Source: an uncultured Ruficoccus sp.
Lineage (GTDB): Bacteria > Verrucomicrobiota > Verrucomicrobiia > Opitutales > Cerasicoccaceae
DNA: 64,000 nucleotides
Direction: 5' to 3'
NCBI GenBank assembly: GCA_965140785.1
Contig: OZ223518.1
Location: 1-64,000, forward strand
Positions 10,067-59,008 of this stretch are shown here, piece by piece. The position numbers and the translations under genes were made by a program. A model generated the notes under the pieces. The model worked only from the letters and a program-made list of their open reading frames with translations, searched no databases and had not been told where the DNA came from. Numbering within the stretch: the stretch's first letter is position 1; every line of letters starts with the position of its first letter.

Positions 10067-10114
10067 AAAAATAAAAATCTCCGTTTTCGTTACCATCTTT
10101 TGTAAAACCCGCCC

Positions 10115-42787: not shown

Positions 42788-43516
42788 ATGAAAGTACAGG
42801 TATTACAGCACGTTCCGTTCGAGTGGATCGGCAGCATGGAGCCTTGGCTGCTGGAGCGCGGGGCGGAGATTTTTACGGCGAAACTCTACGAGTCGGACGA
42901 CCTGCCAGACCCGGCGACGGTGGATCTGGTGATCGCCATGGGCGGGCCGATGAGCGTCAACGACGAGGCCGGGCACCCCTGGCTGGTGCCGGAGAAGGCC
43001 TTCCTGCGCGAAGCCGTCCAGCGCGGCGTGCCCACGCTCGGGGTGTGCCTGGGCGCGCAGCTCATCGCCAACGCGCACGGGGCCACCGTGGGGCGCAACC
43101 CGCAGCCGGAGATCGGCTGGTTCCCCATCGAGTCCGTGCCCGCGCCCCGGGGGACGTTTACCTTTCCGGCCAGGCTCGACGTTTACCACTGGCATGGGGA
43201 AACCTTCGGGTTGCCGGCGGAGGCCTCCCTGCTCGCGTCCAGTCTGGCGTGCAAGAACCAGGCCTTCCAGATGGGGGATAACGCCATCGGCATGCAGTTT
43301 CACCTGGAAACGACCCCCGAAACAGCCGCTCTGCTGGTCGAGAACTGCCGAGACGAGATCGTGCCGGGCGAGTACGTCCAGAGCGCCGAGGCCATGCTCG
43401 CCGCCCCGCCCGAGCGTTATGCGGCCATCAACAAACTCTCGGGCCGCATCCTCGACTACGTGCTCGGCAACCGCACCGGAGCGAAAAAGCGCCCCGAGGA
43501 CGTGATCATATTTTAG
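42788..43516 (+). CDS. Type 1 glutamine amidotransferase
   Basis: LQHVPFE, MGGPMSVND, GVCLGAQL, QFHLE triad. Confidence 0.92.
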   Translation: MKVQVLQHVPFEWIGSMEPWLLERGAEIFTAKLYESDDLPDPATVDLVIAMGGPMSVNDEAGHPWLVPEKAFLREAVQRGVPTLGVCLGAQLIANAHGATVGRNPQPEIGWFPIESVPAPRGTFTFPARLDVYHWHGETFGLPAEASLLASSLACKNQAFQMGDNAIGMQFHLETTPETAALLVENCRDEIVPGEYVQSAEAMLAAPPERYAAINKLSGRILDYVLGNRTGAKKRPEDVIIF

Positions 43517-43531: not shown

Positions 43532-43654
43532 CTGGGCTTATGCAGCCCAGACCCGCAGCAGACGAAGTCTGCACTTTCGATGCTGCGCATCGTGTCTGCA
43601 ATTGCTGAAATGGATATCCATTTCAGCAATTGCAGAGCAAAAGCATCAAAACTG
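43532..43654 (+). repeat. Four-hairpin structured element family B copy X, including a perfect 42-bp palindrome
   Basis: Hairpins 43532-43550, 43558-43572, 43578-43592, 43595-43636; same order and spacing as the reverse complement of 58845-58975. Confidence 0.85.
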
Positions 43655-43745
43655 GGTCTCCACCATAGGATGGAATCTCTGTGGCAGGGGCCTTTGAGGA
43701 ACAGTGAGTGCTGACGATTGGTCAGGCAAGCTCTGTGCATTGCTT

Positions 43746-43830
43746 GGGGTAGCGGCCTTTTGGACGCGTAGGGGCGATAGCCCCTTCATGTCCCGTGCGG
43801 TCACGCACCCGCGTAGGGGCGCAGCCCCTC
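43746..43830. repeat. Two GTAG-type REP-like hairpins
   Basis: GCGTAGGGGCGATAGCCCCT (43766-43785) and GCGTAGGGGCGCAGCCCCTC (43811-43830); the latter is identical to 46006-46025. Confidence 0.75.
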
Positions 43831-43855
43831 AATCGGGTCAAGCGCCGAGCGCTTG

Positions 43856-44959
43856 TCACCCACCGATTTTGAAGAGGGTGACGTCGCCGTCTTTGAAGAG
43901 GTACTCTTTGCCTTCGAGGCGGTACTTGCCGGCGTCGCGGGCGGCGGCGATGGAGCCGGCGGCAATGAGGTCGTCGTAGGAGACGACTTCGGCCTTGATG
44001 AATTTCTTCTCGAAGTCGGTGTGGATGACCCCGGCGCATTGGGGGGCCTTCATGCCGAGGCGGAAGGTCCAGGCGCGGGTTTCCTTTTCGCCGGTGGTGA
44101 AGTAGCTGGCCAGCCCGAGCAGGCGGTAGGCCTCGCGGATGAGGCGGTTGCAGCCGCTGTCGGAGATGCCGAGGCTTTCGAGGTATTCTTTGGCCTCGTC
44201 GGGGGCGAGTTCGCCCAGTTCCTCCTCGACGCGGGCACAGATCGGGCAGTAGCCGGCACCGTGGTGCTCGGCGGCCCAGGCGGCGACCTTCTGGACGAGC
44301 GGGAGGTTGTCGGCGTCGGCCAGCTCGTCTTCCTTCACATTGCAGGCGTAGAGGACTTTTTTGGCCGAGAGCAGGTTGTAGAATTTTAAAAGCGCGCGCT
44401 CGTCGTCAGTCAGCTCCATGGTGATGACGGGCTTGCCCTCGCCGGTGTGGGCGAGGATGCGGGTGAGCAGGGCGTGGTGGGTCTGGGCTTCCTTGTCGCC
44501 GCTCTTGGCCTTCTTGGCCCAGCTGTTGAGCTGGCGCTCGACGCTTTCAAGGTCGGCCAGGACGAGTTCGGTGTTGATGATCTCGATATCGCGGACGGGA
44601 TCGACGCCGCCCATGTTGTGGATGACGTCGTCGTCCTCGAAGCAGCGCACGACGTGGACGATGGCGTCCACCTCGCGGATGTTGGCGAGAAACTTGTTGC
44701 CTAAACCTTCGCCCTTGCTGGCCCCGGCGACGAGCCCGGCGATGTCCACGAACTCGATGGCGGCGGGAATGATCGTGCGGGTACCGCCGATCTTGGCTAG
44801 CGGCGCCAAGCGTTCGTCCGGCACCTCAACGACACCGACATTCGGCTCGATGGTGCAGAAGGGATAGTTCGCTGCCTCCGCCTTACGGGTGCGGGTGAGG
44901 GCGTTGAAAAGGGTGCTTTTGCCCACGTTGGGCAGTCCGACGATTCCGGCTTGGAGCAT
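43856..44959 (-). CDS. ychF: Redox-regulated ATPase YchF
   Basis: [50 protein letters not shown]. Confidence 0.97.
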
Positions 44960-44994
44960 AGTTGCGGTGGAAAATGTTTTTGAGCTAAACCTGA

Positions 44995-45155
44995 GGGATC
45001 GTTCACCAATGACTCATGTCGTCTGCTTGGCTGGGTTCTGGGGCCTTTTTCGTGTTCTCCCCTCGACAATTCTCAACATTGCCTCGGTTCGAAGCCCGAA
45101 AACGTTTCTCAAAACCAGCCTGCGCATACTCGTTCCGTCATTTGCAAACAATCCC
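44995..45155 (-). mobile_element. Structured rod-like repeat family A copy 3
   Basis: Terminal IR GGGATCGTTCACCAATGAC/GTCATTTGCAAACAATCCC; shared TCATGTC, TCGACAAT..ATTGCCTC and CTCGTTCCGT. Confidence 0.8.
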
Positions 45156-45306
45156 AAGCTCTAAAGGGAAAATCCCCCGCTCGCCAAGCGTTATCTCCGG
45201 CCGGAGCAATTCAATCGGGTCCGGCGGACCCGTCGGGCGTAGGGCTTTACCCCCGGCGGGGCGTTTTTGGCTTTCGCCGGGCGGGATTTCTCTTTCAGCT
45301 AAAGGG

Positions 45307-45777
45307 ATGGACAAAACCCAGGTCTTCGACGCGCTGCGCAGCAAGCTCCAGTCCGAGTTGGCGGTGGCGGTGGGCGCTTCGCGCGACGCCGCCGACTACG
45401 CGACCAACGAAGAGTCCCGCGCGGAGTCCAAATACGACACTCAGGGGCTTGAAGCCTCCTACCTGGCCGCCGGTCAGGCCACGCTGGCCCGCGCTCTGGC
45501 CGAGGCGGTGGGCATCCTCGACAGTCTGCACGGGGAGTTGACCACTCCGCGCGAAAGTGTCCTGCGCGGCGCGTTGGTCCAGTGCAGCCTCGGGCGGTTC
45601 AAGGAATGGTTTTACCTCGCCCCGGTCGGCGGCGGGGAAACCCTGGACATCGACGGGACGGAGGTGACCGTCGTGACCGCGCAGTCTCCTATCGGAGCGG
45701 CCATCACCGGCAAAGCCGCCGGGGCGAAGTTCAAGCTCCCCAACGGGGCCGACGGAAGCATCGTGAAGGTGGTCTGA
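45307..45777 (+). CDS. GreA/GreB-family protein
   Basis: AESKYDT..LEASYLA.GQ, VT..SPIG.A..GK..G. Confidence 0.8.
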   Translation: MDKTQVFDALRSKLQSELAVAVGASRDAADYATNEESRAESKYDTQGLEASYLAAGQATLARALAEAVGILDSLHGELTTPRESVLRGALVQCSLGRFKEWFYLAPVGGGETLDIDGTEVTVVTAQSPIGAAITGKAAGAKFKLPNGADGSIVKVV

Positions 45778-45802
45778 GGGAGCGTCTGGGCGCTAGTGTG
45801 GC

Positions 45803-45946
45803 GTTAGCTTAGTTCATTGAAGATGTATTTGAGCCACTAAAAGGCACAAAAAGCACAGAACTGAAACTGACCCCTCTAGATTCGCGGCTTATCCTGATTT
45901 TTTGTGAGTTTTGTGGCCATTAACTTTTGCCTAGAACTAGGCTAAC
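45803..45946. mobile_element. MITE-like element family C copy 2
   Basis: Termini GTTAGCTTAGTTC/GAACTAGGCTAAC; flanks match 5524-5840, core inverted. Confidence 0.75.
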
Positions 45947-45984
45947 ATAATACTAGACTGTTCGAACGCACTCCAGACTGGGCA

Positions 45985-46025
45985 GGGGTAGCCGCCTTTC
46001 TGGCGGCGTAGGGGCGCAGCCCCTC
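45985..46025. repeat. GTAG-type REP-like double hairpin
   Basis: GGGGTAGCCGCCTTTCTGGCGGCGTAGGGGCGCAGCCCCTC, similar to 43746-43785. Confidence 0.7.
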
Positions 46026-46046
46026 AGTGCCAGCGGGTGCAATCCG

Positions 46047-47657
46047 TTACCACATGCCCTGGTTGAGGGATTCGTTGACTTCGGCCAATTGGGTGAAACC
46101 GGTCTTGAGCTGGTCCACGCGCTCGGCGTGAAAGCCGGTGCGGGGGACGAGGGGGAGTTCCTCGAGTTCCTGGGCCTGCTCACGGAAGAAATCGGTCAGC
46201 GATCGGCCTTTGGCGCGCCCGCGATTGCGGATGATGCCGATGATTTTGTTGCGTTCGTTCAGGGTGATGCGCTTGCCCTCCAGAGAGGCGTACTCCTTGA
46301 CCACGGCATTGTGGGCGGTGATCCACTGGGAGAGGCGCGGGTTCTCGATGCCGGGAATGATGATGGGGGAGAATGGGTCACTGTAGTAAACGGCCATGAT
46401 GGAACCGGACTGCTCCATGGCGGCCTCGGCATCGATCAGGCGTTGGTTGATCATGGCGAGAGCCTCGGCGTGGAAGGGAATCCACTTGATGCGGTCGTCG
46501 AGCTTGACGCCAAAGCGGCGGACCTTGTCGAAGCCCGTCCCGGCCATGATCCAGTCTTTTTCACTGGTGGGGCTGAAGGTGGCGTAGGTGGCGACGGCCA
46601 CGACGACGTCCTTGTCGTTGACGATGGGGCTGCCGCTGTTGCCGGGGACGAACTTCGCGCTGGTCTCGATGCGGTCGAAGGCGTCGCCCTTGACCTCGCC
46701 CCGGATCTCGGTGATGACGCCCGCGCCCGCGCTGTTGCCGTAGACGGTGACATCCTCGCCAATGTCGGCCTCGGTCGTGAAGGTCAGGCAGGGGGGCTGC
46801 TGGTTAATGGTGATGCGGGCCAGGTCGCGGTCCTGGGCCAGCTCGATCAGGCGGGGCTTGAGCTGGGTGCCGTCGCGCATGCGGATGCTCAAGTCCTTGC
46901 CGGAGCCGACGACGTGGCTGTTGGTGAAGAAGTAAACCACGCCGTCCATCTGGCAGAGAAAGCCCGTGCCCGAGCCCTCGGCGGTGGTGACGAGCCCGAC
47001 GGCGTCCTCGGGGTCCCGCACGGGCATGAAGCGGCTCGCGTGCTGGGAAGCATGGACGCGTTCAGCTTTTTCCTCTTCGGCGTCAGCCAGCTTTTGGAGC
47101 TGAGCGGCGCTGAACTTGGGGGTGGAGACTTCCTCGGGCTCATGCCGGGCGACCGCCTGCGCGGCCTCCGAGCGTTCGATGGCCTCGCGGTAGCGGTCGG
47201 TCTCAATGAGGCGGAAGAGATTCTGCGGGAAGGGGACCCGGCGCTGAGTGTCGCCGACCGGGACGACCAGCTCGACTTTCCCGTCCGCGGCGGCGGCGAC
47301 GGGGTAGGGCGTGCCCTTCTGGATGAGGATGACGCCCTTGTCGAAGTTCAGGACGATCATGCCGTTGACGCTGGCGTTTTTGCCCTCGCGGGTACTGACG
47401 GTGCGCCCGTTCTTTTTCTTGGGTAGCTCGACCACGTGGACGGCGTCCCCGAAGTCGTAGTTAATAAAGAACACGTCGTTATTTTCGCTGATGATCTCGA
47501 AGGACTGCGAGGGGTATATCTTGCGCTTGCCCTCGTCGATGGGATAGCGGACGGCAAAGCTGGCGTTGGGCAGCGCGACATACGTGGCGGCGTGGGCGGA
47601 TAGCGGGATCAGCGATAAAAGCAGGCTCAGGAAACAGTAGAGGAAAACGGCTCTCAT
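46047..47657 (-). CDS. Secreted trypsin-like (S1) serine protease
   Basis: Signal peptide; GTGF, TNSHV, RDLA, PGNSGSP triad motifs. Confidence 0.85.
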   Translation of the reverse strand: MRAVFLYCFLSLLLSLIPLSAHAATYVALPNASFAVRYPIDEGKRKIYPSQSFEIISENNDVFFINYDFGDAVHVVELPKKKNGRTVSTREGKNASVNGMIVLNFDKGVILIQKGTPYPVAAAADGKVELVVPVGDTQRRVPFPQNLFRLIETDRYREAIERSEAAQAVARHEPEEVSTPKFSAAQLQKLADAEEEKAERVHASQHASRFMPVRDPEDAVGLVTTAEGSGTGFLCQMDGVVYFFTNSHVVGSGKDLSIRMRDGTQLKPRLIELAQDRDLARITINQQPPCLTFTTEADIGEDVTVYGNSAGAGVITEIRGEVKGDAFDRIETSAKFVPGNSGSPIVNDKDVVVAVATYATFSPTSEKDWIMAGTGFDKVRRFGVKLDDRIKWIPFHAEALAMINQRLIDAEAAMEQSGSIMAVYYSDPFSPIIIPGIENPRLSQWITAHNAVVKEYASLEGKRITLNERNKIIGIIRNRGRAKGRSLTDFFREQAQELEELPLVPRTGFHAERVDQLKTGFTQLAEVNESLNQGMW

Positions 47658-47825
47658 AAACAGCGGGAATGAAGGTGCACGCCCAGTAAAAGGCTTCCAT
47701 GGGGGATTGTCATGGCTAATATGAGAAAAGTTCACGAATCAGTGATGCTGATGGTGCTCCGGCGGGTTTGAGCACCGAAAGTCTTGGCGGTGGGGGCGGG
47801 GATACCGCCTCGATCCGGGTTCGAT

Positions 47826-47921
47826 GCGCAACCCTTTCAGGGGTGAAAAATGCTCTCGTCAGCTCCTTTTCCCCGGGTAGCGGGGCAACCGGGGGCTGGT
47901 ATGCGGAAACCCGTCGGGGGT
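47826..47921. repeat. Degenerate REP-like palindromic element (CGCAACCC...GGG / CCCGGGTAGC..GCAACCGGG)
   Basis: Short GC-rich hairpins with direct-repeat ends; single copy in the window. Confidence 0.35.
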
Positions 47922-47968
47922 CAGGGGAGGCCTCGAAATACGGGTGACAAGAACCCGTCAACCACGCC

Positions 47969-48340
47969 TTACGGGATCACCCGGTTGCAGCCGTGGGGGG
48001 CGGGGCGCCCGGCCTCGTCGATAGAGACGAAGACAATGCGGTCGATGGTGATGATCTTGTCTTTGGTTACCTTGTTGCGAACCTCGCAGCAGAGGGTGAT
48101 CGAGGAGGTGCCGAAGGCCACGACGTCCATGCCCAGCTCGATCACGTCGCCGGGCTTGGCGGAGGACTTGAAGTCGATTTCAGAGATGAACTTGGTGACG
48201 ATGTGCGGGTTGTTGTCGAGCTGGCACATCGCGAAGATGGCGGCCTCCTCGTCAATCCACTGGAGCAGTTGCCCTCCGAAGAGGCTACCGTGTGCGTTGA
48301 GGTCGGCGGGCCGGATCCATTTGCGGCTGTAGAATCTCAT
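47969..48340 (-). CDS. Acyl-CoA thioesterase (hotdog fold)
   Basis: DLNAHGSLFGG.LL.WIDE, GTSSI, VFVSIDE.G. Confidence 0.9.
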   Translation of the reverse strand: MRFYSRKWIRPADLNAHGSLFGGQLLQWIDEEAAIFAMCQLDNNPHIVTKFISEIDFKSSAKPGDVIELGMDVVAFGTSSITLCCEVRNKVTKDKIITIDRIVFVSIDEAGRPAPHGCNRVIP

Positions 48341-48422
48341 GATGAAGCAGGTCTAAAAATGAGAGAAAAACGCAGGTGCACCGGGGGAGGTTTGTGGGGG
48401 CTGGTCTCGAAGGAGAGCCCGA

Positions 48423-50000
48423 TCAATGCCCGGCGGCGGCCGGTTTACCGGGGTCAGGGCGCTTGCGCATAAACAGGAGCAGCGGGATGACGCAGGCCAG
48501 GCTGAGGCCGAAAATAGCAAAAATGCGCTCGAAGGCCAGGCTGCTGGCGATGAGATTGTTGACATACTCGATGGTCTTGAGCGCGAAAAGCCGTGCCGTG
48601 TCGAGGGTGATGCCCTGATCGGTGAAGTGCCGCTCAAGGTTGGACATGGTGACGATGGAGGCCGGATCATTGGGGACAACGGCGTTGGCCAGGACGAGCT
48701 CGAAGTTGGCCTTGACCCTGCCCAGGATACTGGCGGCGATGACGATGCCCACCCCGCTGCCGAACTGGCGGGTGAGGTTGAGCAGGCCGCAGGCGTTGGC
48801 CTGTTGCTCGGGGCGCAGGTCGGCCACGGCCAGGGCGTTGAGCGGGACAAAGATGATGCCCAGTCCGATGCCGCGCAGCAGGAAGGGCAGGTACAGGTCG
48901 ATCTTCGGCGTGTCGAAGCTGAAGGTGCTGTACTTGAACATGGCGAAGAAAAAGATCCCCAGCCCGATCAGAATGAGCGCGTAGGGGTTGATGCGGTGGG
49001 CGACCTTGCCCGCGATGTACATGCTCAGGCCCGTTCCTGCCGCCACCGGGAACATGATCAACCCCGTCTCCAGGGCCGAGAAGCCCATCAGGTCGATCAA
49101 CAGCATGGGGGTGACGAAAACGATGGCCAGGGTGCACAGCGCCTGCATGAAGCTGAAAATACAGCAGGCGGTGAACTGGAGGTTCTTTAAAATGCGCAGG
49201 TCCACAATGGGATCGGTGACATTGAGCTCGCGCAGGACAAACATGATGGCGCTGGCCCCGCAGAGAACGGCGAGGTTCATGCCGTTGCCCAGGAAGCCCC
49301 AGTTCATATCCGAGGCCTCGACCAGCAGGTACTGGAGTGAGCCGATGGCAAAAGTCAGCAGGAGCAGCCCCTGTAAGTCGATCTTCTTGACCTTTTCGCG
49401 GTAGGCCGAGTCGGGCACGATCAGGGCGACGAAGACCACGGCGACGAGGCCGAAGGGTACGGTAACATAGAAAATCCACGGCCAGGAAAGGATGCCCGTG
49501 ATGTAGCCGCCGATGGCGGGCCCCATGGCCGGACCGACCATCAGGCCGAGGCCCCACAGGGACATGGCCCGGGCGTGTTCGCGGGGCGGAAATACCTCGT
49601 AGATGATCGCTTGGGCAGTGGCGACAAGCGCGCCGCCGCCCATGCCCTGAAGCACGCGCCAGATGATGATCTCGCTCAGCGAGGTGGACAGCCCGCACAT
49701 GAGGCTGGCAAAGGTGAAAAGCAGCAGCGATCCGTTGAAATAGCGCTTGCGCCCGAAGAGCTGGGCCAGCCAGCCGGTCATGGGAATGATAATGACATTG
49801 GCCAGCAGGTAGCCGTTGGAGACCCAGCTGATCTGCTCCAGCGAGGCGTCGAGACTGCCCATCATATCGGGCAGCGAGACGGTGATGATGCTCGCGTCCA
49901 GCCCCTCCAGGAACGAGGCCAGCGTCACCACCGCGACGATCAGGTAGCGCAGCGGGTGGCCGTCCTCGCCGTAGGTGTTCGGCTGTGGGCTTTTGTCCAT
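48423..50000 (-). CDS. DHA2 family (EmrB/QacA) efflux MFS transporter
   Basis: LD.SI..VSLP, W..NGYLLA, FGRKR, RVLQGMGGG, GPAMGP.IGG, WIFY..VP.G. Confidence 0.92.
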   Translation of the reverse strand: MDKSPQPNTYGEDGHPLRYLIVAVVTLASFLEGLDASIITVSLPDMMGSLDASLEQISWVSNGYLLANVIIIPMTGWLAQLFGRKRYFNGSLLLFTFASLMCGLSTSLSEIIIWRVLQGMGGGALVATAQAIIYEVFPPREHARAMSLWGLGLMVGPAMGPAIGGYITGILSWPWIFYVTVPFGLVAVVFVALIVPDSAYREKVKKIDLQGLLLLTFAIGSLQYLLVEASDMNWGFLGNGMNLAVLCGASAIMFVLRELNVTDPIVDLRILKNLQFTACCIFSFMQALCTLAIVFVTPMLLIDLMGFSALETGLIMFPVAAGTGLSMYIAGKVAHRINPYALILIGLGIFFFAMFKYSTFSFDTPKIDLYLPFLLRGIGLGIIFVPLNALAVADLRPEQQANACGLLNLTRQFGSGVGIVIAASILGRVKANFELVLANAVVPNDPASIVTMSNLERHFTDQGITLDTARLFALKTIEYVNNLIASSLAFERIFAIFGLSLACVIPLLLFMRKRPDPGKPAAAGH

Positions 50001-50021
50001 ATCCCCGGTGTGAGCCTGAAA

Positions 50022-51647
50022 TTAGCGTCCGTCGGTGCCGACGGAGCCGGGGTTGCGCTTCTCGGCGACCTGCTGGAGATCGGAGGCGGTACTGGCAGCA
50101 GTGGAAGCCGGGGCGGTTCCGGATGAAGGCTGGGGCGGCGGGCTGGCGCTCGTCGTGTCGCCGGGGGACTGGTTGTCCGCGCCGGTGCCCGGAGCGTCAG
50201 TAGCGGGTGCCGCTTGGGAGCCGGAGGAAGCGGCGTCCGTCTGGCCGGAGGCCGGGGTGGCGGGGGGTGGCGTGGCAGCCTTGCCGCTCGTATCTGTGGA
50301 GGAGGACTTATCCGGTGCGGAGGCGTCGGAAGGAGAAGTGTTGGTGGACGATTTCACCGGAGTGGCGTCGGCGTCCGAGTCTGCGGTGTCCGTGGCCGGA
50401 GCCGGGGAGGGCGTGGGGGCATCGCTGCCAGTGGCGTCCGTTTTGCTGCTGTCGGGCTTGGATGTATCGGGCGAGGCCTGTGCGGGCTGGTTTTTCTCGC
50501 CGGTTTCAATGGCGGCCTTGGCCTTGCGGTAGGCGACGACCTGCTTGTCCTTCTCGTCGAGCGGATCGGTCATGATGATGACGGTCGCGCTCATGCCGGG
50601 AAGCATACGGGCCTTTTGGCTGGGATCGAGAATGCGGATACGCACCGGGATGAGGGCCTCGGTCTTGATAAAGTTGCCGGAAGCGTTGTTGCGCGGGATG
50701 AGGGCGAACTCGGACCCGGCGGCCGGGCTGATGCTCTCGACCTCTCCGTAGAAAGTTTCGTTCGGGAAGGCGTCGAGCGAGAGGATGACCGGGTAGTCGA
50801 TCTTCACCTGTTCGATTTTGCTCTCCTTGATGTTGGCTGTGACCCAGGTGTCGGTCTTGGAAACAACGGCCATGAGGTACTGGTTGGACTGGACGAGGAC
50901 GCCGGGGCTGATGTTTTTCTGGGCCACGTAGCCCTCAATCGGGCTGCGGATGGAGGTGTTGATCAGGCGTAGTTTCGCCTGCTCGAGTTCGGCCTTGGCC
51001 TGATCAAGATTGTAGTCACCCAGGCGCTGGCTGGCCTGCTCCTCGGCGAGCTGCTTCTGTGCGAAAAGAGACTGCTTCTCCAGGGTGTTGACGTTGGCCA
51101 TCCACGAGTCGATGTCCGAGAGGGCTTTGGTGTACTGGGACTGGACGAAACCGGGCTTGTCCTTCTGCGCCTCCAGGTCCTTGGCCTTTTGCTGGGCCTC
51201 GGCGAGATTGTCCTTGGCCTCGCTCAACTGTGCGTTGATGAGCTGGAGGTTGGCCTGGGCGCTCTGGAGCTGGGCGGCGTTGAGGCCGGGCTGCTTCTCG
51301 GTGCCGAGCTTGGACTGGACGAGGTCGAAGTTGGCCTGCGCGCGCTGGACCTCCCACTGGTAGAAATTGTTGTCAAGCTGGACAAGGGTCTGATCGGCTT
51401 TGACAAGGTCGTTCTCGTGAAGCTCGACGGCGGTCACATAGCCCTGTTCGGGGGCGAAAATTTTCACCACGAGGCTTTTGACCTCGGCGTTGTCGGTGGT
51501 GACGCGGGTGCGCTCCTTTTGCCACTCCACATAGCCGAACCAGGCGAAGCCGGCGGCGCCGATGATGACGAGCGGCCACAGCAGCTTGGCGACCAGCGGA
51601 TGCAGTTTGGGCTTGGATTTAGCCCCAGTTTCGTTTTTCTCCTCCAT
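50022..51647 (-). CDS. EmrA/HlyD family membrane fusion protein with long Ser/Thr/Pro/Ala-rich tail
   Basis: TTDNA.V, ANIKES, PAAGSEFALIP.NNASGNF.K, PGMSA; about 150-aa low-complexity C-terminus. Confidence 0.9.
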   Translation of the reverse strand: MEEKNETGAKSKPKLHPLVAKLLWPLVIIGAAGFAWFGYVEWQKERTRVTTDNAEVKSLVVKIFAPEQGYVTAVELHENDLVKADQTLVQLDNNFYQWEVQRAQANFDLVQSKLGTEKQPGLNAAQLQSAQANLQLINAQLSEAKDNLAEAQQKAKDLEAQKDKPGFVQSQYTKALSDIDSWMANVNTLEKQSLFAQKQLAEEQASQRLGDYNLDQAKAELEQAKLRLINTSIRSPIEGYVAQKNISPGVLVQSNQYLMAVVSKTDTWVTANIKESKIEQVKIDYPVILSLDAFPNETFYGEVESISPAAGSEFALIPRNNASGNFIKTEALIPVRIRILDPSQKARMLPGMSATVIIMTDPLDEKDKQVVAYRKAKAAIETGEKNQPAQASPDTSKPDSSKTDATGSDAPTPSPAPATDTADSDADATPVKSSTNTSPSDASAPDKSSSTDTSGKAATPPPATPASGQTDAASSGSQAAPATDAPGTGADNQSPGDTTSASPPPQPSSGTAPASTAASTASDLQQVAEKRNPGSVGTDGR

Positions 51648-51813
51648 TATTAGTATTACGCATGGCGGCGAGGCCCTGCTGAGGCAACACTTTATGCCCG
51701 CGGAGAGCCTTTCCGCGAAAAAGGTACGTAAGAAAGGTTGACATGCGGGGGTAAAAAGCCTTTTTTCTCCTGCTTTTCCCAAAAGAACCCGCAGAAAACA
51801 GAATACTTTTTAC

Positions 51814-52242
51814 ATGGCACTCCGAATCAGATTGCAGCGTCACGGCGCTTCCCACTCGCCGGTTTATCGCATGGTTGTGACCGAATCCAGCCATCGCCGC
51901 GACGGCCGCCACGCCGAAGTTATCGGCCACTATAACCCGAAGGCCCGCGGCCAGGACACCGAGCTCAATCTCAAGCTCGAGCGCGTGGACTACTGGCTCG
52001 GCGTTGGAGCTCAGCCCTCCGATACCGCCCGCACCCTGATCAACCGCGCCCGCCGCGAAGGTGGCGTGATCGCCGCTTCCGTGCCCGCCCCGCAGCCGGC
52101 CAAGCAAGCCGAAGCCGCCGCTCCCAAGGCCGAGGAAGCCAAGCCCGAAGCTCCCGCCGAAGAGCCCAAGGCCGAAGCTCCCGCCGCTGAAGAAGCTCCC
52201 GCCAAGGAAGCTGCCTCGGAAGAGGAAAAGCCCCAGGCTTAA
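51814..52242 (+). CDS. rpsP: 30S ribosomal protein S16 with Ala/Glu/Pro-rich extension
   Basis: LRIRLQRHG..P.YR.VV..RRDGR..E..G.YNP, WL..GAQPSDT. Confidence 0.97.
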   Translation: MALRIRLQRHGASHSPVYRMVVTESSHRRDGRHAEVIGHYNPKARGQDTELNLKLERVDYWLGVGAQPSDTARTLINRARREGGVIAASVPAPQPAKQAEAAAPKAEEAKPEAPAEEPKAEAPAAEEAPAKEAASEEEKPQA

Positions 52243-52265
52243 GCGACTTTTAGATATTTTGCCCG

Positions 52266-52297
52266 AAACGGCTTCTCGACGGAGAAGCCGTTTTTTG
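52266..52297 (+). terminator. Intrinsic terminator after rpsP
   Basis: AAACGGCTTCTC-GACG-GAGAAGCCGTTT plus T-run. Confidence 0.85.
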
Positions 52298-52316
52298 TTT
52301 TCCTCGTTGGCAACGC

Positions 52317-52919
52317 ATGAAGGCCGTTCTGATTTTTTTGTGTTTGCTTCTGTCCACTCAGATGGCAGGAGCCAATGAGCCGTACGACAATTTCAGGTTA
52401 GCGCTGATTGGCTATTTGCGGGCGTTTGAAACATTATCTGTTTCCGATGACTCAGCGCTCAATGCGCAACTCGTTCGAAAGGCTGGTTTTGACCTACAGC
52501 AGAGTTGGGACAAGGCAAAATCCTATGTGGAAGAAACCGACCCGGAGCTTGGCGAATACCTCAACCCGCGGGTGAGGTTCCTTGTCTTGGCAACTTACAT
52601 GATCCAATACGACCCAGAATTGGACAGAACTCTGCCTTTAGGCTCCAGTTCGTATACGGATGCGTGGAAGCAGGGGTATGCTGATGCGTATAAGCAGACG
52701 CCACAAAGCTATATTTCTGACCTAACTAAGCGTCTTCAGGGGGTACATCCGGACGAGAAATTTCAACTCAAGAACGGTTTGCTGTACTCTAAACACGTTA
52801 TGTTTATGGCGGATGCCATTTCTGTTTCGCTGCTTGAAACGATTCAGGCGACTATGGGGAAGCCTGTTCTTCAACAGCAAATTGACGCAATTCTGGAGCC
52901 GAAGAGCCAGGCTGACTGA
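52317..52919 (+). CDS. Hypothetical secreted protein, less GC-biased, between rpsP and trmD
   Basis: Signal peptide MKAVLIFLCLLLSTQMAGA; no RimM similarity recognisable. Confidence 0.7.
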   Translation: MKAVLIFLCLLLSTQMAGANEPYDNFRLALIGYLRAFETLSVSDDSALNAQLVRKAGFDLQQSWDKAKSYVEETDPELGEYLNPRVRFLVLATYMIQYDPELDRTLPLGSSSYTDAWKQGYADAYKQTPQSYISDLTKRLQGVHPDEKFQLKNGLLYSKHVMFMADAISVSLLETIQATMGKPVLQQQIDAILEPKSQAD

Positions 52920-52929
52920 TTTCTTTATC

Positions 52930-53604
52930 ATGTTGAACACAATCGACCTGTTGACGCTTTTTCCGAAAATGGCGGAGGGCTTCCTGACCGAGAGCATTCT
53001 CGGGCGGGCCGTGGCGCAGGGGCTGATGTCGATCAATGTGCACAACCTGCGCGACTGGTCCACGGACAAGCATCACCGCGTGGACGACCGGCCCTTCGGG
53101 GGCGGGGCGGGGATGGTGCTGATGCCCGAGCCGCTTTTTGCCGCCATTGAGGAGATCAAAACCCCCGAGACAACAACGATTTACCTATGCCCGGACGGTG
53201 AGCCGCTCTCCACCCCGATGGCCCGTGAACTGGCCGAGCTGCCCCACCTGCTGCTGGTCAGCGGGCATTACGAGGGGGTGGACCAACGGGTGCGCGACGC
53301 GCTGGTGGACCGAGAGGTTTCCATCGGCGATTACGTCCTGACCAACGGCACGTTGCCGGCGGCGGTCCTGATTGACTGCGTGGTGCGGCAGATCCCGGGT
53401 GTTTTAGGTGAAGAAAAATCCTTGACGCAGGACAGCTTCAACGACAATTTCCTCACTTTTCCTCAATTCACGCGCCCGGCGGATTACCGCGGAATGAAGG
53501 TTCCGGAGGTCCTGCTCAGCGGAGACCATGCGGCCATCGAGCGTTGGAGAGAGGAAGAAAGAAGAAGGCAGACCCGCCTCCGGCGGCCCGATCTTAACGC
53601 ATAA
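52930..53604 (+). CDS. trmD: tRNA (guanine37-N1)-methyltransferase
   Basis: VDDRPFGGGAGM, GHYEGVDQR, SIGDYVL, PQFTRP, VPEVLLSGDH. Confidence 0.97.
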   Translation: MLNTIDLLTLFPKMAEGFLTESILGRAVAQGLMSINVHNLRDWSTDKHHRVDDRPFGGGAGMVLMPEPLFAAIEEIKTPETTTIYLCPDGEPLSTPMARELAELPHLLLVSGHYEGVDQRVRDALVDREVSIGDYVLTNGTLPAAVLIDCVVRQIPGVLGEEKSLTQDSFNDNFLTFPQFTRPADYRGMKVPEVLLSGDHAAIERWREEERRRQTRLRRPDLNA

Positions 53605-53642
53605 TTTAGTATCCATCCGGATATCCAGAACCACCTTTCGCC

Positions 53643-54014
53643 ATGCAAGCGATTCTCGAAAACATCACTCAAGACCAACTCAAGACCGACCTCGTTAAGT
53701 TCAAGGTCGGCGACGGCGTGCGCGTCCACACCAAGGTGCGCGAAGGCGACAAGGAACGTATCCAGATCTTCGCTGGCATCGTGATTTGCCGCAAGGGCCG
53801 GGGCATTGCCGAGACTTTCACCGTGCGCCGCATCTCCTACGGCGAAGGCGTGGAGCGCGTTTTCCCCGTCAACTCCCCCAACATCGAAAAGATCGAGGTG
53901 GACCGCGAATCCGTGACCATGCGCGCCCGCATGTACTACCTGCGTGGCCGTATCGGCAAGCAGGCTAACAAGGTGAAGGAAAAGCGCCTCGTCGAGGCCG
54001 GCCGCGGCCGCTAA
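53643..54014 (+). CDS. rplS: 50S ribosomal protein L19
   Basis: [31 protein letters not shown]. Confidence 0.98.
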
Positions 54015-54046
54015 ACCCCGCGTTCACCCAACCCGTTCTATTTCCC

Positions 54047-54559
54047 ATGGCAACGACAGACATTCTTCTTCTCGAACCCGTCACCGGCCTCGGTGGCGAA
54101 GGCGACCAGGTCACCGTCAAGGCTGGCTACGCCCGTAATTTCCTCCTCCCGCGCAAGGTGGCCCTCCCGGTCAACCGCGCCAACCAGAAGTACATCGACG
54201 CCCTCCAGAAGCGCCGCGCCGAGCGCGAAGCCAAGGAACTGGGTAACGCCCAGGAGCTCGCCGCCAAGATCGAAAAGGTCGGTATCGCCATCGCGGTCAA
54301 GACCGGCGAAGGCGGCAAGATGTTCGGCTCGGTCACTTCGCAGGACCTGATCGACCGCCTCAAGGAAGACGGCATCGAGCTCGAGCGCAAGCAGCTCAAC
54401 CTCTACACCCCGGTCAAGAGCCTGGGCAAGCACACCACCAAGGTGAAGCTGCATCCGGAAATTTCCGTCGAGTTCGAGTGGGAAGTCGTTTCCGAGAACC
54501 CGATCGAAGAGACCGAGGACGCCGAGGTCGCCGCCGAGGAAGCCCCCAAGGCCGAGTAG
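54047..54559 (+). CDS. rplI: 50S ribosomal protein L9
   Basis: LG..GD.V.VKAGYARNFLLP, GKMFGSVT, VKLHPEI. Confidence 0.97.
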   Translation: MATTDILLLEPVTGLGGEGDQVTVKAGYARNFLLPRKVALPVNRANQKYIDALQKRRAEREAKELGNAQELAAKIEKVGIAIAVKTGEGGKMFGSVTSQDLIDRLKEDGIELERKQLNLYTPVKSLGKHTTKVKLHPEISVEFEWEVVSENPIEETEDAEVAAEEAPKAE

Positions 54560-54568
54560 CAACAGGCA

Positions 54569-54630
54569 GGACAGGAGTCCTCCACCTGTGATCTTTCGGA
54601 TCACTGATGGCTTTACTCAGACAAAGCCAT
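54569..54630 (+). ncRNA. Degenerate fluoride(crcB)-riboswitch-like structured motif (tentative)
   Basis: GGACAGGAGTCCTCC-ACCT-GTGATC(TTTCG)GATCAC-TGATGGCTTTAC, with competing hairpin ATGGCTTT/AAAGCCAT. Confidence 0.3.
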
Positions 54631-54655
54631 GGGCCGCAAAGAAATCCTTTTATGC

Positions 54656-54689
54656 AAAACCTCCGTCCGGTACCGGGCGGAGGTTTTTT
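54656..54689 (+). terminator. Intrinsic (possibly bidirectional) terminator
   Basis: AAAACCTCCGTCCGG-TA-CCGGGCGGAGGTTTTTT. Confidence 0.8.
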
Positions 54690-54801
54690 GTGTTCAGCTA
54701 TTCTGCGGGAAGGTCTGACAGAGCCGGAGCATATGTCTCCGGTCTTTCTTTACGTCCTTCCTGTTAAAAGCCGCTTTTTGTCCGGCACGTTGAAGGCAGT
54801 C

Positions 54802-56346
54802 TTAAGCCAAGTCGGCGTCGGCTTCTTCCTCTTCGGCGAGTTCCTTCTCGGTCGGGCGGGCGCCGATCTTATCGAGGCTGATGCCCTTGGTCTCGATCGC
54901 GAATATGGTTGTGATGACCGCGCCTAGTATAGACGCGCCGACCAGGCCGTAGAGGAGTAGCTTATCGCCGATGTCCTGGAGCAGGATGGGGAAGAGAAAC
55001 GCAGTCATGACGGCTCCGATCTTGGCAAAGGAGGCGGCGAAGCCCGCGCCCTTGCCACGGATGTGGGTGGGGAAGACCTCGCCCGCGATGAGGTAGGTCA
55101 TGGCGTTGGGGCCGAGGTTGGTCATGAAGAAAAAGAGCATGAACCCGGCGAAGAGGAGCGGCATGTTATTGCTGCCGTCCGCCTGGAGGGAGAGGGCGGC
55201 CAGCAAGAGCCCGACCGCGCAGCCGATGAAGCCGATGACCTGGAGCTTGATGCGGCCCAGCCTATCGACCAGCAGGATAGCGAAAATAATCCCCACGACG
55301 AAGAGCAGGTCCATCAGGGCTGAGCCCTTGGCGGCAAGCATGTCGTTGTGGATGATGTCGGACAGGCTGGTGTTGACGCGCTGCTGACCGATCAAGGTTG
55401 CCAGGATGGTGGGGGTGAAGATGCCGATCCCGTAGGTGGCCAGGTCCTGAATAAACCAGGGGACCGACGCGAGAATGGTGGCCTTGCGGTGCTGCTTGCT
55501 GAAGAGCGTAGCGTAACCGCAGCGGGGGCGTTGGGCCCCGTCTTTATGGGGGTTGCTCAGCTTGATCTCGCGGGGATACTGGGGGCGGCGGCGCAGCAGC
55601 CGGTGGGTGGCCTTTTCCGCCTCCTGAATGCGGCCGCGGGAAACCAGCCAGTGGCCGCTGTCGGTGACGTAGAAGCGCCCGACGATGACCAGGATAGCCG
55701 GGATGATCGCGCTGGCGTACATCCAGCGCCAGGCGTTTTCGACCGGGTCGCCGGCCAGGATCGCGTAGCCGATGGCGGTGCCGATGAGGGCGCCGACCGC
55801 CTGAAAGGCGAAGGCGCTCAGCACCAGCCGCCCACGGGCGGTGGTCGGAATGCTCTCGGAGATGACCATGTGCGCGGTCGGATAGTCACAGCCCAGCGCG
55901 ACGCCGATGCCGAACAGAAAGACCACGACCCAGGTGAAGCCGGGTGCGAGCGACAGGGCGATGAGGAACACGGTGAAGATCACCATCTCCGCGATGAACA
56001 TGCGCTTGCGCCCGAAGACATCGGCCAATCCGCCCAGGGCCGTCGCGCCCACCAGGATACCGGCGAGGGTGGCGGCGGTGACAAAGCCCTTGGAGGAGGC
56101 TGCGAGGTCGAACTCACGGGAAAGCAGGGGCAGCGCCACCCCGGTCATGAACACGACCATGCCCTCGAAGAACTTTCCGGCGCAAGCCAGCGCCCAGATG
56201 CGCCACTGCATTTGCGTCATCGGGGCAGTGGGAACACGGGTGCCATCCGCCCACATCGGGCATTCGTCGATGTAGTCCTGAACCGAGCGTTCCCGGGCCG
56301 GCTGGCCGGGGTCCGGTTGGAGGCGGGTGACGGGATTTTCAGACAT
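54802..56346 (-). CDS. MFS transporter (sugar/organic-anion porter-like)
   Basis: GGLADVFGRKR, G..LG.DYP, ESIP...RG, VDRLGR, EVFPTHIRG.G.G. Confidence 0.9.
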   Translation of the reverse strand: MSENPVTRLQPDPGQPARERSVQDYIDECPMWADGTRVPTAPMTQMQWRIWALACAGKFFEGMVVFMTGVALPLLSREFDLAASSKGFVTAATLAGILVGATALGGLADVFGRKRMFIAEMVIFTVFLIALSLAPGFTWVVVFLFGIGVALGCDYPTAHMVISESIPTTARGRLVLSAFAFQAVGALIGTAIGYAILAGDPVENAWRWMYASAIIPAILVIVGRFYVTDSGHWLVSRGRIQEAEKATHRLLRRRPQYPREIKLSNPHKDGAQRPRCGYATLFSKQHRKATILASVPWFIQDLATYGIGIFTPTILATLIGQQRVNTSLSDIIHNDMLAAKGSALMDLLFVVGIIFAILLVDRLGRIKLQVIGFIGCAVGLLLAALSLQADGSNNMPLLFAGFMLFFFMTNLGPNAMTYLIAGEVFPTHIRGKGAGFAASFAKIGAVMTAFLFPILLQDIGDKLLLYGLVGASILGAVITTIFAIETKGISLDKIGARPTEKELAEEEEADADLA

Positions 56347-56565
56347 GGCAGCTATATCGATAAGCAGCACTTCCGTCCAACCCGCGCAATCCTTATCCCG
56401 GATCGTTGCCTAATCTTAACATGTCACAGCAGCAGGGCGCTTTCTTTTTGATCAAGGATTTTAGCGGAGAATTGAATTTCAAAAATACGTTAGCTTTTAT
56501 GCATACTGCCAGTTCTCATGGGGTTGCGCTAGGTGTCGGTGGCCGGGTTTGTGCCCTGCGGGCAC

Positions 56566-56599
56566 AAAAAAGCTGCCGGAGGGTGAAATCCGGCAGCTT
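56566..56599 (-). terminator. Intrinsic terminator after clpP
   Basis: AGCTGCCGGA/TCCGGCAGCT stem with A-run on + (U-run on -). Confidence 0.75.
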
Positions 56600-56687
56600 G
56601 GAAAGGGGGCAGGGCGTGGAAGGGATGTCCCTCCCCTTTCCCGGCCTGTCTGAATGCGCAAGCGCTCGTAGGTGGTCTGTGCGCCCT

Positions 56688-57308
56688 CTAGAGGGACTCT
56701 ACGATCTTGTCCACGAGGCCGTATTTGATGGCCTCGGGAGCGGTCAGGTAAAAGTCGCGGTCGGTGTCCCTGGCGATATTTTCCAGCGGCTGACCGGAGG
56801 AGGCGGCGAGGATGTTGTTGAGCTCGACGCGGAGCTTTTCCATTTCCTCGGCCTGGATGTTAATGTCCACGGCGGGGGCGACGATGCGACCCATGATCAG
56901 CGGTTGGTGGATGAGCACGCGGGCATGGGGGAAGATGAAGCGGTTGCCCTTGTCCGCGCCGCACAGGAGGATCGAGCCCATGCTGGCGGCCATACCGGTG
57001 ACGGTGACGCGGATGGGCGAGTTGAGCAGCTTCATCGTGTCATAGACGGCCATGCCGGCAGTGATGGAGCCGCCGGGGGAGTTGATGTAGAAGTCGATGG
57101 GCTCGCCGGGCTTGTCGCAGTCCATGTAGAGGAGCTTTTCCATCACCTCCTGCATGGACTCGTCATTGACCTCGCCCCAGAGGAAAATTTTGCGCTGTTC
57201 GAGGAATTTCTTCTCTACCAGCATGCGGAAGCCGCCCTTGGACTCTTCCTTGCCTTTTTCTTCGCATCCGCCGTCGAAGCGGGCTGTGTCTGTATCGAAT
57301 TTCGTCAT
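56688..57308 (-). CDS. clpP: ATP-dependent Clp protease proteolytic subunit
   Basis: YINSPGG, GMAASMG, LIHQP, DTDRDFY, YGLVD. Confidence 0.96.
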   Translation of the reverse strand: MTKFDTDTARFDGGCEEKGKEESKGGFRMLVEKKFLEQRKIFLWGEVNDESMQEVMEKLLYMDCDKPGEPIDFYINSPGGSITAGMAVYDTMKLLNSPIRVTVTGMAASMGSILLCGADKGNRFIFPHARVLIHQPLIMGRIVAPAVDINIQAEEMEKLRVELNNILAASSGQPLENIARDTDRDFYLTAPEAIKYGLVDKIVESL

Positions 57309-57576
57309 AAGAGTGAGCTTGGAAATTGCGGGAGTAATTCCCGGGGGACTCATTGGGTACCTTGCGGTCATGAAGAGGCCGGTCAGTGTCCGTTATGTCC
57401 TTTGCATGATTAACGTAGGCATGATGCGCGGATTTACCAATCAAAAATGCGAATGTCTGCTCGGGGAGGGCGGGGGGCAAGATAGCGGGCTGGCGATTGG
57501 CCTGGCAGAGGGCCCTAACGCGCAGTGGGTGATTTTCCGGAGTTAATGCGCAGGGCAAATATCCGATGTGGGACGC

Positions 57577-57951
57577 ATGTCTGTAACCATCGCCTCCTCT
57601 ATGCCAACCGCTGAAGCTGATGAAGAACCGGGCCGAACGGGCCTTCTCGACCGGCTCCGGCCCTGGGTACGCCTGGCCATCCGGCACGTCAACTGGGAGG
57701 AGGGCGAAGAGCTCCGCTCCCGTAAGATCCTGGTCCGGGCCCGTCCCGGTGTGGAGCTCGAACTGCTGAGCGAGGATCACGAGCGGTCCCGGTTTCACGC
57801 CAGTCTGAGCAGGCTGAACGAGCGCGGCTATTATCAGCTGAAAATCTGGCCCCGCACGACGCGTGATTATTGCGAGGATGACATCCAACTGCTGGCCACA
57901 CACCCCTCGGGGCGGGAAAAAATGTACACGATCCGCGCCTTGGTGGATTGA
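57577..57951 (+). CDS. Hypothetical protein
   Basis: Clean ORF with GC-rich third positions; start uncertain. Confidence 0.5.
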   Translation: MSVTIASSMPTAEADEEPGRTGLLDRLRPWVRLAIRHVNWEEGEELRSRKILVRARPGVELELLSEDHERSRFHASLSRLNERGYYQLKIWPRTTRDYCEDDIQLLATHPSGREKMYTIRALVD

Positions 57952-58110
57952 GGGGGCGTTTTCGCGAGTCCTAGTTGTCTGGCTGCCCCTCAGAGGGGCG
58001 GCTGACTGTATGGGACTGCCCTTGGAGGAGATCGGTTACGAACTTTCCTCTCCGTGCCGGTAAAACCGTCTGCGGCTTGACCTGCGAACGTGAGCCGCTT
58101 TGCTGTCTTT

Positions 58111-58779
58111 ATGAGGATGCCGATTCTTTTTGCGCTGGCTGGCGCGTTCGCGGCGGGAAGCAGCCTGCCCCTGTATGGCGGGCTGGAGTGGGAGCGTACC
58201 GAGTTTACCGCGCCTGCGGTCTTCGGCCAGGCTTCGCTGGAGGCGACGTACCCCTTTAAAAACACCGGGACCGAGCCGGTGCGTATCCTCAAGGTGAAAA
58301 CTTCCTGCGGCTGTACCTACGCCGCCGCCAGCCAGGAGGTGATCGCTCCGGGTGAATCGGCGGAGGTAGCCGCGTTCTTCGAGACCGAATCACGGGAGGG
58401 CCCGCAGTCCTCGACCATTACGGTCCTCACCGATGAGCCGGACGAGTCGGCGACGACTCTGCGCTTCCGTTCGGATATTCCTGCGGCGGCCGAGCTGCCG
58501 ACCCGTGTGGTCCGCTGGAAAGCCGCCGATCCGCGCGAGGCCAGGACATTTGCCATCACCGTCCAGCCCGGCGTGAGCCTGCAACTGCTTCCGCCCAAAC
58601 GCCCGCTGCCGGTGGAGGTGAAGCTGGAGAAAAATCAAGCGACCGACGGCAAGCCCGGCTACACCCTCACCCTGGCCCCGCTCGACGGCGATAGCGGCGC
58701 GGGGATTCTACCGCTGGAGGCCCACTGGGCCGGTGAAGGCAAGCGCCTCTATAATCTTTACGTCCGAGTGGACAAATAG
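58111..58779 (+). CDS. DUF1573 domain-containing secreted protein
   Basis: FKNTG..P..I..V.TSCGCT, I.PGES; signal peptide. Confidence 0.85.
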   Translation: MRMPILFALAGAFAAGSSLPLYGGLEWERTEFTAPAVFGQASLEATYPFKNTGTEPVRILKVKTSCGCTYAAASQEVIAPGESAEVAAFFETESREGPQSSTITVLTDEPDESATTLRFRSDIPAAAELPTRVVRWKAADPREARTFAITVQPGVSLQLLPPKRPLPVEVKLEKNQATDGKPGYTLTLAPLDGDSGAGILPLEAHWAGEGKRLYNLYVRVDK

Positions 58780-58844
58780 AACACGGGGAAGGGACTGCTC
58801 TCCTCGTGTGGTGAATGCTAAGTTCCCAATATAATTGGCGGGTG

Positions 58845-58975
58845 CAGTTTGCATGTTTTGTCCCTCTGCGATTGAAGGGAACGGCTGAAGCCGTTCCCTT
58901 CAATCGCATACACGATGCCATCGGCATCGAACGTGCAGGCTTTGCCTGCCGCGGGTGCGGGCTGCGTAAGCCCGC
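58845..58975 (-). repeat. Four-hairpin structured element family B copy Y
   Basis: 20-bp perfect IR 58867-58908; hairpins 58913-58929, 58935-58949, 58957-58975; same architecture as 43532-43654. Confidence 0.85.
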
Positions 58976-59008
58976 AGAACATTCCGCCGAAGACTTTGAA
59001 GTCAGGCC

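Follow-up and report, generated by a model that had tools for sequence, protein, structure and literature searches.

A four-hairpin repeat behind stop codons in Ruficoccus and a subfamily with IS630-type ends

Two copies of the repeat and their neighbouring genes

The stretch analysed here (the window; 64,000 nucleotides of contig OZ223518.1 of an uncultured Ruficoccus sp., assembly GCA_965140785.1) carries two full copies of a repeat made of four hairpins, H1 to H4 (Table 1). Copy 1 lies between the GATase and ychF genes, copy 2 between the DUF1573 and sufT-like genes. Both start shortly 3' of a stop codon (offsets of 14 nt for copy 1 and 33 nt for copy 2) between convergent genes, as a preliminary description of this DNA had observed. 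That description gave the shared layout as 43532-43654 (+) and 58845-58975 (-), where all hairpins, linkers and tails are present. H1 reads CTGGGCT-TATGC-AGCCCAG in copy 1 and GCGGGCT-TACGC-AGCCCGC in copy 2, H2 GCAGAC-GAA-GTCTGC and GCAGGC-AAA-GCCTGC, and H3 CGATGC-TGC-GCATCG and CGATGCC-GAT-GGCATCG. When pairing was checked copy by copy, 0 mismatches were found across the eight stems, so all stem changes keep pairing, and no terminator-like site (hairpin plus T run) was called inside either element, both as described. The count of two copies holds for full copies in the window, but not for the genome, and copy 2 proved to be longer than its hairpin core (58804-59011). Both strands of both copies score far above shuffled sequences when folded as RNA (z -7.9 to -9.5) or as DNA (z -9.2 to -10.2).

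Table 1. Positions of the repeat copies, their parts and the adjoining genes in the window.
Feature	Position	Strand	Remarks
Class I glutamine amidotransferase (GATase) gene	42755..43516	+	PF00117; upstream of copy 1
Copy 1, TIR-less four-hairpin core	43532..43664	+	H1 43532-43550, H2 43558-43572, H3 43578-43592, H4 43595-43636, tail to about 43664
Module Y (sister hairpin module)	43747..43830	-	HMM match 43747-43809; extra hairpin to 43830 read from sequence
ychF GTPase gene	43856..44959	-	PF06071, PF01926; converges on copy 1
DUF1573 gene	58090..58779	+	PF07610; converges on copy 2
Copy 2 whole, 208 bp, likely decayed IS630-type MITE	58804..59011	-	From length class, alignment and tree
Copy 2 right TIR	58804..58837	+	Terminal CTAG decayed by one base
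Copy 2 four-hairpin core	58845..58975	-	H1 58957-58975, H2 58935-58949, H3 58913-58929, H4 58867-58908, tail to 58845
Copy 2 left TIR, decayed	58981..59011	-	Begins with the TAG stop codon of the sufT-like gene, inside CTAG 59009-59012
sufT-like Fe-S assembly gene	59009..59575	-	PF01883; adjoins SufBD-family gene

The flanks of copy 1 match IS630 TIRs at best at 13/24 and 12/24 positions, which is chance level; copy 1 thus lacks the TIRs of an IS630-family MITE, and in the tree it is placed among TIR-less copies. Module Y sits 3' of the ychF stop codon in ychF sense, and forms with copy 1 a mosaic that fills the convergent GATase/ychF intergenic space.

Copy 2, judged by its sequence, is likely a decayed 208-bp member of the IS630-type MITE class. 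Its right TIR agrees with an IS630 TIR at 17/24 positions, exceeding all 2000 random windows (maximum 16), and with the right end of the intact IS630 in L035 at 24/34. The left TIR, at 13/24 to reference TIRs, is by itself not significant, and is backed by its position (the distance to H1 is as in intact copies) and by alignment. End to end, copy 2 aligns with an intact 206-bp copy, and in the tree it clusters with five TIR-bearing copies of the same genome (support 100/92). The stop codon of the sufT-like gene is its likely insertion site. A flank-adjacency search, the matches listed in a contig alignment and a metagenome scan (core in 1 stretch, sufT stop region in 0) showed no empty site for copy 2.

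Dispersal at gene ends and pairing of the stems

In the source genome the repeat occupies 63 non-overlapping loci at E<0.01, with 0 in a reversed-genome decoy, and it is present in all four sister species searched (G001-G004). It exists as a TIR-bearing form of 206-211 bp and as a TIR-less core. TIR-less copies behind stop codons lie in gene sense in 70 cases and antisense in 2; the corresponding ratio for TIR-bearing copies is 13:4 (Fisher p 0.011 between the two forms, with kin copies not independent). Gaps between convergent genes hold 29/51 element sites, compared with 242/1073 overall, and the stop codon is TAG before 59/113 copies scored TIR-less versus 777/2988 genes. Some module is found at the orthologous site in 39/101 cases (158/1930 for genes generally) and the core itself in 16/101, so the copies are mostly lineage-specific. 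Truncated and internally deleted copies are common. Module Y has 117 matches in the source genome and 0 in the decoy, and TIRs adjoin neither sister module (W, 0/83; Y, 0/117). TIR-less homologues that retain the four-hairpin layout also lie behind stop codons in two other genera. Outside the family there was one weak match, in G034. The picture is of gene-end repeats dispersed by the dozen per genome in one genus, mainly directly after stop codons; specialists may be interested that about 200 such hairpin loci lie almost without exception in sense, with no mobilising enzyme in view. This orientation would be compatible with a putative 3'-UTR role.

The compensatory substitutions reported earlier are real. 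Across the aligned stems 95.4% of 1995 cells are paired, 27/40 pairs have changed on both sides, and 0/500 shuffles scored as high. The long hairpins of 96 TIR-less copies contain 1919 Watson-Crick, 2 G-T, 5 A-C and 19 other pairs, and on the sense strand G-T pairs do not exceed A-C; the stem-trimming score prefers Watson-Crick pairs and so biases their percentage upward, which leaves only the comparison of G-T with A-C neutral. Because G-U is not commoner than A-C, the covariation suggests palindrome repair in DNA instead of selection on an RNA fold, and the substitutions are no specific pointer to RNA.

The suggestion of an unannotated ncRNA was not supported. In Rfam searches the whole window yielded one tRNA only, near copy 1 only miRNA and snoRNA models far below their cut-offs appeared, and nothing relevant to the element was found at gathering or E-value level. 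A dedicated structured RNA, whether a discrete sRNA or a regulatory 3'-UTR element with its fold under selection, would agree with the strong covariation, the sense orientation and the layout kept in the outgroup genera, but we regard it as very improbable, given the G-T counts, the lack of an Rfam match, the equal folding of both strands, the dozens of mostly lineage-specific copies after unrelated genes and the frequency of truncated and internally deleted ones. The element is best seen as one more form of a well-known type of repeat DNA rather than as a new RNA gene; strong covariation in hairpin repeats does not prove an RNA gene.

IS630 elements and the TIR-bearing form

The transposase link found, on sequence grounds, is IS630. 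Sister species G003 has intact IS630 elements with matching ends, and 3/3 of their proteins score above the cut-off of NCBIfam NF033545. In L035, a four-hairpin element directly adjoins an intact IS630 within a train of four CTAG-joined elements; its left end is identical to the TIR of the L037 IS630 at 29/30 bases, and the right end of the source-genome subfamily matches the L035 IS end at 29/34. Elements with both TIRs are non-coding, multi-copy and constant in length (18/21 measure 206-211 bp), and in 10/21 CTAG is intact on both sides. The preference of IS630 for CTAG is reportedly known, going by the title of a 1991 paper. IS630 transposases are DDE enzymes that work on double-stranded ends.

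One empty-site pair was obtained, in G003: relative to the uninterrupted form in L035, a copy nested in the TIR of another MITE (L203) has TA duplicated. This pair came from inspecting the nested copy; the flank-adjacency search over 21 elements gave none. Contigs were also compared with the window and with one intact element, and none of the matches listed spanned an empty site, which is uninformative either way. A non-canonical word of four bases flanks two copies on either side but is not repeated in two others, so that 2-bp and 4-bp duplications both fit. Neighbours at 0.93 or more were found for 7/11 TIR-bearing copies in G003 and 5/9 in G004; the copies are thus near-identical, and recent bursts are seen, as far as sequence similarity tells, in these two sister species. 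TIR-bearing copies make up 8/28 of the full copies sampled in the source genome, 0/31 in G001 and 2/33 in G002.

No IS630 match was found in the source genome, G001 or G004; in the source genome (completeness 90.85%), which gave no match to DDE_3 or the L037-like transposase, the enzyme is therefore absent or unassembled. Nor was a TIR pair found around a transposase there. A looser single-end TIR threshold performed at chance level (333 versus 355 in the decoy) and was left out of the counts.

The TIR-bearing form resembles RUP of Streptococcus pneumoniae, a MITE attributed to IS630-Spn1 (PMC2229807, PMC3049150): both are short non-coding intergenic repeats with a stable fold, TA ends and TIRs like those of the lineage's IS630, and both are prone to occur inside or next to other IS elements and where two genes converge. 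Unlike RUP, the present element is twice as long, its interior consists of four G+C-rich hairpins whose long stem changes freely, and this interior is also widespread without TIRs. The TIRs, the TA target and the duplication likewise resemble those of the IS630/ISY100 family, whose members depend on their TIRs for cut-and-paste transposition into TA, which is duplicated (PMC2170065); the element differs in having no transposase, none being found in the source genome.

Relative age of the core and its ends

The TIR-less form is likely the older one, captured by IS630 ends, because it is found after stop codons in sense, joined to other hairpin modules and in outgroup genera. In an unrooted tree built from 124 cores alone (126 columns), a single group of 39 rows (SH-aLRT 88, not starred) takes in all 30 TIR-bearing cores. 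Median neighbour scores are 0.82-0.83 for TIR-less copies (G000, G001) versus 0.93-0.97 for TIR-bearing ones (G003, G004), and the TIR-less copies possess a separate consensus.

We consider it fairly probable that a genus-level hairpin repeat after stop codons predates the IS630 TIRs and was captured by them, the 206-211-bp form being a MITE that an IS630 transposase would move in trans. The scheme would start from the TIR-less core, which follows stop codons in sense and joins sister hairpin modules, as copy 1 does. One core lineage, to judge from the outgroups and the tree, would have come to lie between IS630 ends. The transposase would then excise the element and insert it at the TA in CTAG, often with a TAG stop rebuilt by the duplication; the ends, the target and one empty site are observed, and the action of the enzyme is assumed from IS630 biochemistry. 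Upon loss of the transposase the ends would decay, as in copy 2. Copying of one palindrome arm onto the other at the DNA level would keep the stems paired, and the element would be retained after stop codons, where stem-loops may be harmless or useful as mRNA 3' caps. This would make a clean case of MITE birth by IS630 ends enclosing a pre-existing repeat, and capture is testable since a single genus holds the TIR-bearing and the TIR-less form together with an intact transposase and signs of a recent burst.

The reverse order, in which all copies began as IS630 MITEs and the TIR-less ones lost their ends by erosion while selection or gene conversion preserved the hairpins, seems rather unlikely. 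In several copies part of the left TIR is deleted, which shows that decay is another way for TIR-less copies to form, and such intermediates fit this account, as do the greater divergence among TIR-less copies, the excess of TAG before copies scored TIR-less and the orthologous sites that often hold some module. It sits poorly with the 31/31 full G001 copies that have intact cores and no TIR trace, the TIR-less homologues in two other genera, the modules W and Y that are never TIR-adjacent, the stronger polarity of TIR-less than of TIR-bearing copies, and their own consensus.

The spread of the TIR-less copies is not accounted for by the capture mechanism. Conceivably, though we think it unlikely, the core without TIRs forms with its sister modules mobile 3'-UTR hairpin arrays in their own right, inserted in sense immediately after stop codons by a transcription- or RNA-coupled route that would require none of the enzymes searched for, and to which IS630 ends would add a second, independent spread.

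The preliminary description had also proposed, as an alternative to a structured 3'-UTR, a mobile module recognised as ssDNA. Mobility (through IS630 ends) and the 3'-end position were supported, but recognition through ssDNA, RAYT or Rep was not: the core flanks 0/11 Y1 loci (G000, G002, G008), and neither W nor Y was found in them (one short weak match to module Z occurs in L242). It is quite improbable that a RAYT, since lost from most of these genomes, spread the TIR-less core through ssDNA as a repeat of REP/BIME type, with IS630 capture as a side branch. The mosaic hairpin arrays found 3' of genes and in convergent gaps do resemble REP clusters, GTAG precedes some hairpins of module Y, and a published account (PMC3733652) describes a verrucomicrobium with GTAG repeats as well as REP families that have no transposase of their own. 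Beyond the empty Y1 loci, however, the RAYT-like genes of G008 bear unrelated hairpins, Y1 is unmatched in G001, G003 and G004 (three of the five genus members), and a GTAG or CGTC tag at the hairpin feet is absent from the consensus of 50 cores.

Other enzymes were considered and rejected. Reverse transcriptase, IS110 and IS91 are patchy in the genus, with none in G001, and their loci are without a module; IS4/IS5-type DDE_Tnp_1 loci have no core match and no matching TIR pair. The genome with most hits, which is near-complete, gave no match to RAYT, reverse transcriptase, IS110, IS91 or IS630.

A literature search, mostly outside subscription journals, found nothing specific on this hairpin family or on REP capture by IS ends. 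The repeat is close to REP/BIME/REPIN and the pneumococcal BOX (PMC3733652, PMC3049150) as modular hairpin arrays 3' of coding regions in shuffled combinations, but set apart by a core without a GTAG/CGTC tag, no RAYT flanked, a subfamily bounded by TIRs and a near-uniform strand orientation. The ERIC/IRU and Correia elements, structured repeats with TA at their ends, are transcribed along with neighbouring sequence and can alter mRNA stability according to orientation (PMC2229807); by analogy they may offer a model for the copies behind stop codons.

Structure and spread of the four-hairpin repeat

The four-hairpin repeat is real and is a variant of kinds already described, an IS630 MITE together with a REP/BOX-like 3' mosaic. 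Both stretches of the window match in sequence the two-copy layout claimed in the preliminary description, and the claim that stem changes preserve pairing is borne out by eight of eight stems without a mismatch. Whether folded as RNA or as DNA, both strands of each copy come out 8 to 10 SD better than shuffled sequences. They do lie between convergent genes as described (copy 1 in the GATase/ychF gap, copy 2 in the sufT-like/DUF1573 gap), and a terminator-like site was called within neither copy. An Rfam scan gave no relevant match for the element, and our literature searches turned up no account of this repeat family. Near-complementarity between the tail of copy 1 and the stretch made up of the linker and the H3 5' arm allows an alternative long stem, seen in the minus-strand fold; in the copy at locus L006, all three places of this stem are altered together.

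An iterated profile search of the window's genome (G000) recovered 63 non-overlapping loci at E<0.01 and 79 at E up to 1, with no match in the reversed genome used as a decoy. Covariance-model matches, which are not equivalent to copy numbers, occurred in 7/16 genomes of the family: 85 in G000 and 132, 122, 66 and 24 in four sister species of the genus; two further genera gave 12 and 1. A shorter model matched 5/121 genomes of the order (four within the genus plus one weak match), and when the species collection was scanned for an exact pattern, all 57 stretches recovered were in records titled Verrucomicrobiota or Verrucomicrobiia.

In an alignment of 50 copies, 95.4% of 1995 cells are paired and 27 of 40 pairs show changes on both sides, exceeding all 500 shuffles; 48 of the 50 long-hairpin arms are distinct. 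For an RNA-selected stem, tolerance of G-U on one strand would be expected. In the long hairpins G-T is not commoner than A-C, either among 96 TIR-less copies (2 vs. 5) or among 30 bearing terminal inverted repeats (TIRs; 3 vs. 5). Arm-to-arm copying in DNA by template switching would explain free change with perfect pairing.

Features of the window and of related loci
Feature	Location	Description
Copy 1	window 43532..43664 (+)	
Tail of copy 1	window 43642-43654	
Linker and H3 5' arm of copy 1	window 43573-43592	
Copy 2	window 58804..59011 (-)	
Second IS630-type element	window 45794-45955	162 bp; TIRs, CTAG on both sides; unrelated inner part made up of short A-rich repeats
Related ends	window 5515 and 32344	related to the ends of the 45794-45955 element
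Further W-/Y-type hairpin modules	window 12829-12881, 45987-46031, 54576-54631	
Other intergenic repeat family	window 9990-10068, 45079-45157, 5786-5820	~79 bp; two copies 72% alike
Element train	L035:753-2424 (G003)	small element with ends of another IS630 subgroup; intact IS630; four-hairpin MITE; 152-bp MITE
Y-module array	G000:C47:87843-88125	at least 6 units in tandem, spacing ~44 bp
Y1-domain gene	L001:1468-2388	

Copies between IS630 ends

A G000 subfamily of 206 bp has imperfect TIRs and lies at CTAG. No IS630 match was found in G000; DDE_3 matches number 12 in sister species G003 and four in G002, and all three G003 transposases tested passed the IS630 model NF033545. In the L035 train, four elements are joined at shared CTAG sites. 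The left end of its four-hairpin element equals the TIR of an IS630 (L037) at 29/30 bases; between the right end of the G000 subfamily and the L035 IS end, 29/34 bases agree. The ends of elements in this train act as new targets.

TIRs were scored as present in full copies at 16/24 or better against these IS630 TIRs (3 of 2000 random windows reach 16/24, none 17). At least one side bears a TIR in 8/28 copies in G000, 0/31 in G001, 2/33 in G002, 11/20 in G003 and 9/12 in G004, the counts for relatives covering fetched loci, a mostly best-scoring subset of all copies. Among elements with both TIRs, 18/21 are 206-211 bp and 10/21 have intact CTAG on both sides; one is nested inside another MITE's TIR, and comparison with the uninterrupted TIR shows TA duplicated (2 or 4 bp). 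For the IS630/ISY100 family, earlier work has established that TA is duplicated and that the transposase needs no partner for cut-and-paste (PMC2170065); RUP is the reference example of a MITE ascribed to an IS630 (PMC2229807, PMC3049150).

Copy 2 is likely a decayed, lineage-specific MITE insertion: counted from the TAG codon that ends the sufT-like gene, it runs 208 bp to 58804 and can be aligned over its full length with an intact copy. Its right end matches an IS630 TIR at 17/24, it joins five TIR-bearing G000 copies (support 100/92, long branch) in a tree that took in a few flanking bases, and five relatives lack it at their orthologous sufT sites. The score of its left TIR alone is not significant. 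One of the five sites carries a different TIR-bounded element at exactly that CTAG; no strain-level empty site was found among the sequencing-run contigs listed or in a metagenome scan.

TIR-less copies behind stop codons

Copy 1 has no TIR. Of 89 TIR-less full copies with enough flank, 70 have only a sense stop within 70 nt of H1 and 2 only an antisense stop near the tail; the same split is 13 to 4 in 28 TIR-bearing copies. Two sister hairpin modules, W and Y, share the polarity (51:3 and 63:4), and none touches a TIR (0/83 and 0/117). Merging the modules gives 206 loci in mixed combinations. Copies favour convergent gaps (29/51 vs. 242/1073, by a rough gene caller). By its polarity the element is linked with the strand that is transcribed; for ERIC repeats, effects on mRNA stability that depend on orientation have been documented (PMC2229807).

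The GATase-ychF site is occupied by a similar mosaic in G002 and by a TIR-led partial copy in G003; in G004 it carries no element. Among 130 copies of relatives with an intact 5' end, 101 have a usable upstream orthologue in G000; these orthologous sites hold the core in 16 cases and some module in 39 (background, 158/1930 genes with a gap), so that some of the sites are common to several genomes while the modules themselves undergo turnover. The stop-to-H1 linker of TIR-less copies (G001/G002; e.g., L147, L123, L006) is short, G/T-rich and C-poor (over 113 linkers: G 859, T 640, C 467, A 428), unlike the C-rich 20 nt after all stops.

Mobilising enzymes and order of events

The possibility raised earlier that a copy might flank a RAYT or Rep gene found no support, the core being carried by none of 11 Y1/RAYT loci. 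G001 (2 contigs, 98% complete) had no match to the Y1, IS630, reverse transcriptase, IS110 or IS91 families; its copies are diverged (near-identical neighbour for 0/31), which fits old spread. The near-identical neighbours of 7/32 copies in G002 could reflect recent spread or gene conversion. Two Y1-domain genes of 306-309 codons, at L001 and L002, fall below the RAYT cut-off (NF047646, 67 of 80 bits), and REP flanks are not evident.

Our reading is that IS630 ends likely captured an older repeat, because two other genera have TIR-less versions of the same layout behind stop codons, TIR-bearing copies group together by their cores, and the same TIR types also surround an unrelated interior (e.g., in the second IS630-type element). 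An unrooted tree built from few columns of the core alone (124 copies) requires 6 changes of the TIR label, against 27.1 for shuffled labels; one 39-row group (SH-aLRT 88) contains every one of the 30 TIR-bearing copies. Against capture, the left TIR is shortened by deletion in some copies and TAG stops are enriched ahead of copies scored TIR-less; decay therefore yields at least some of the TIR-less copies.
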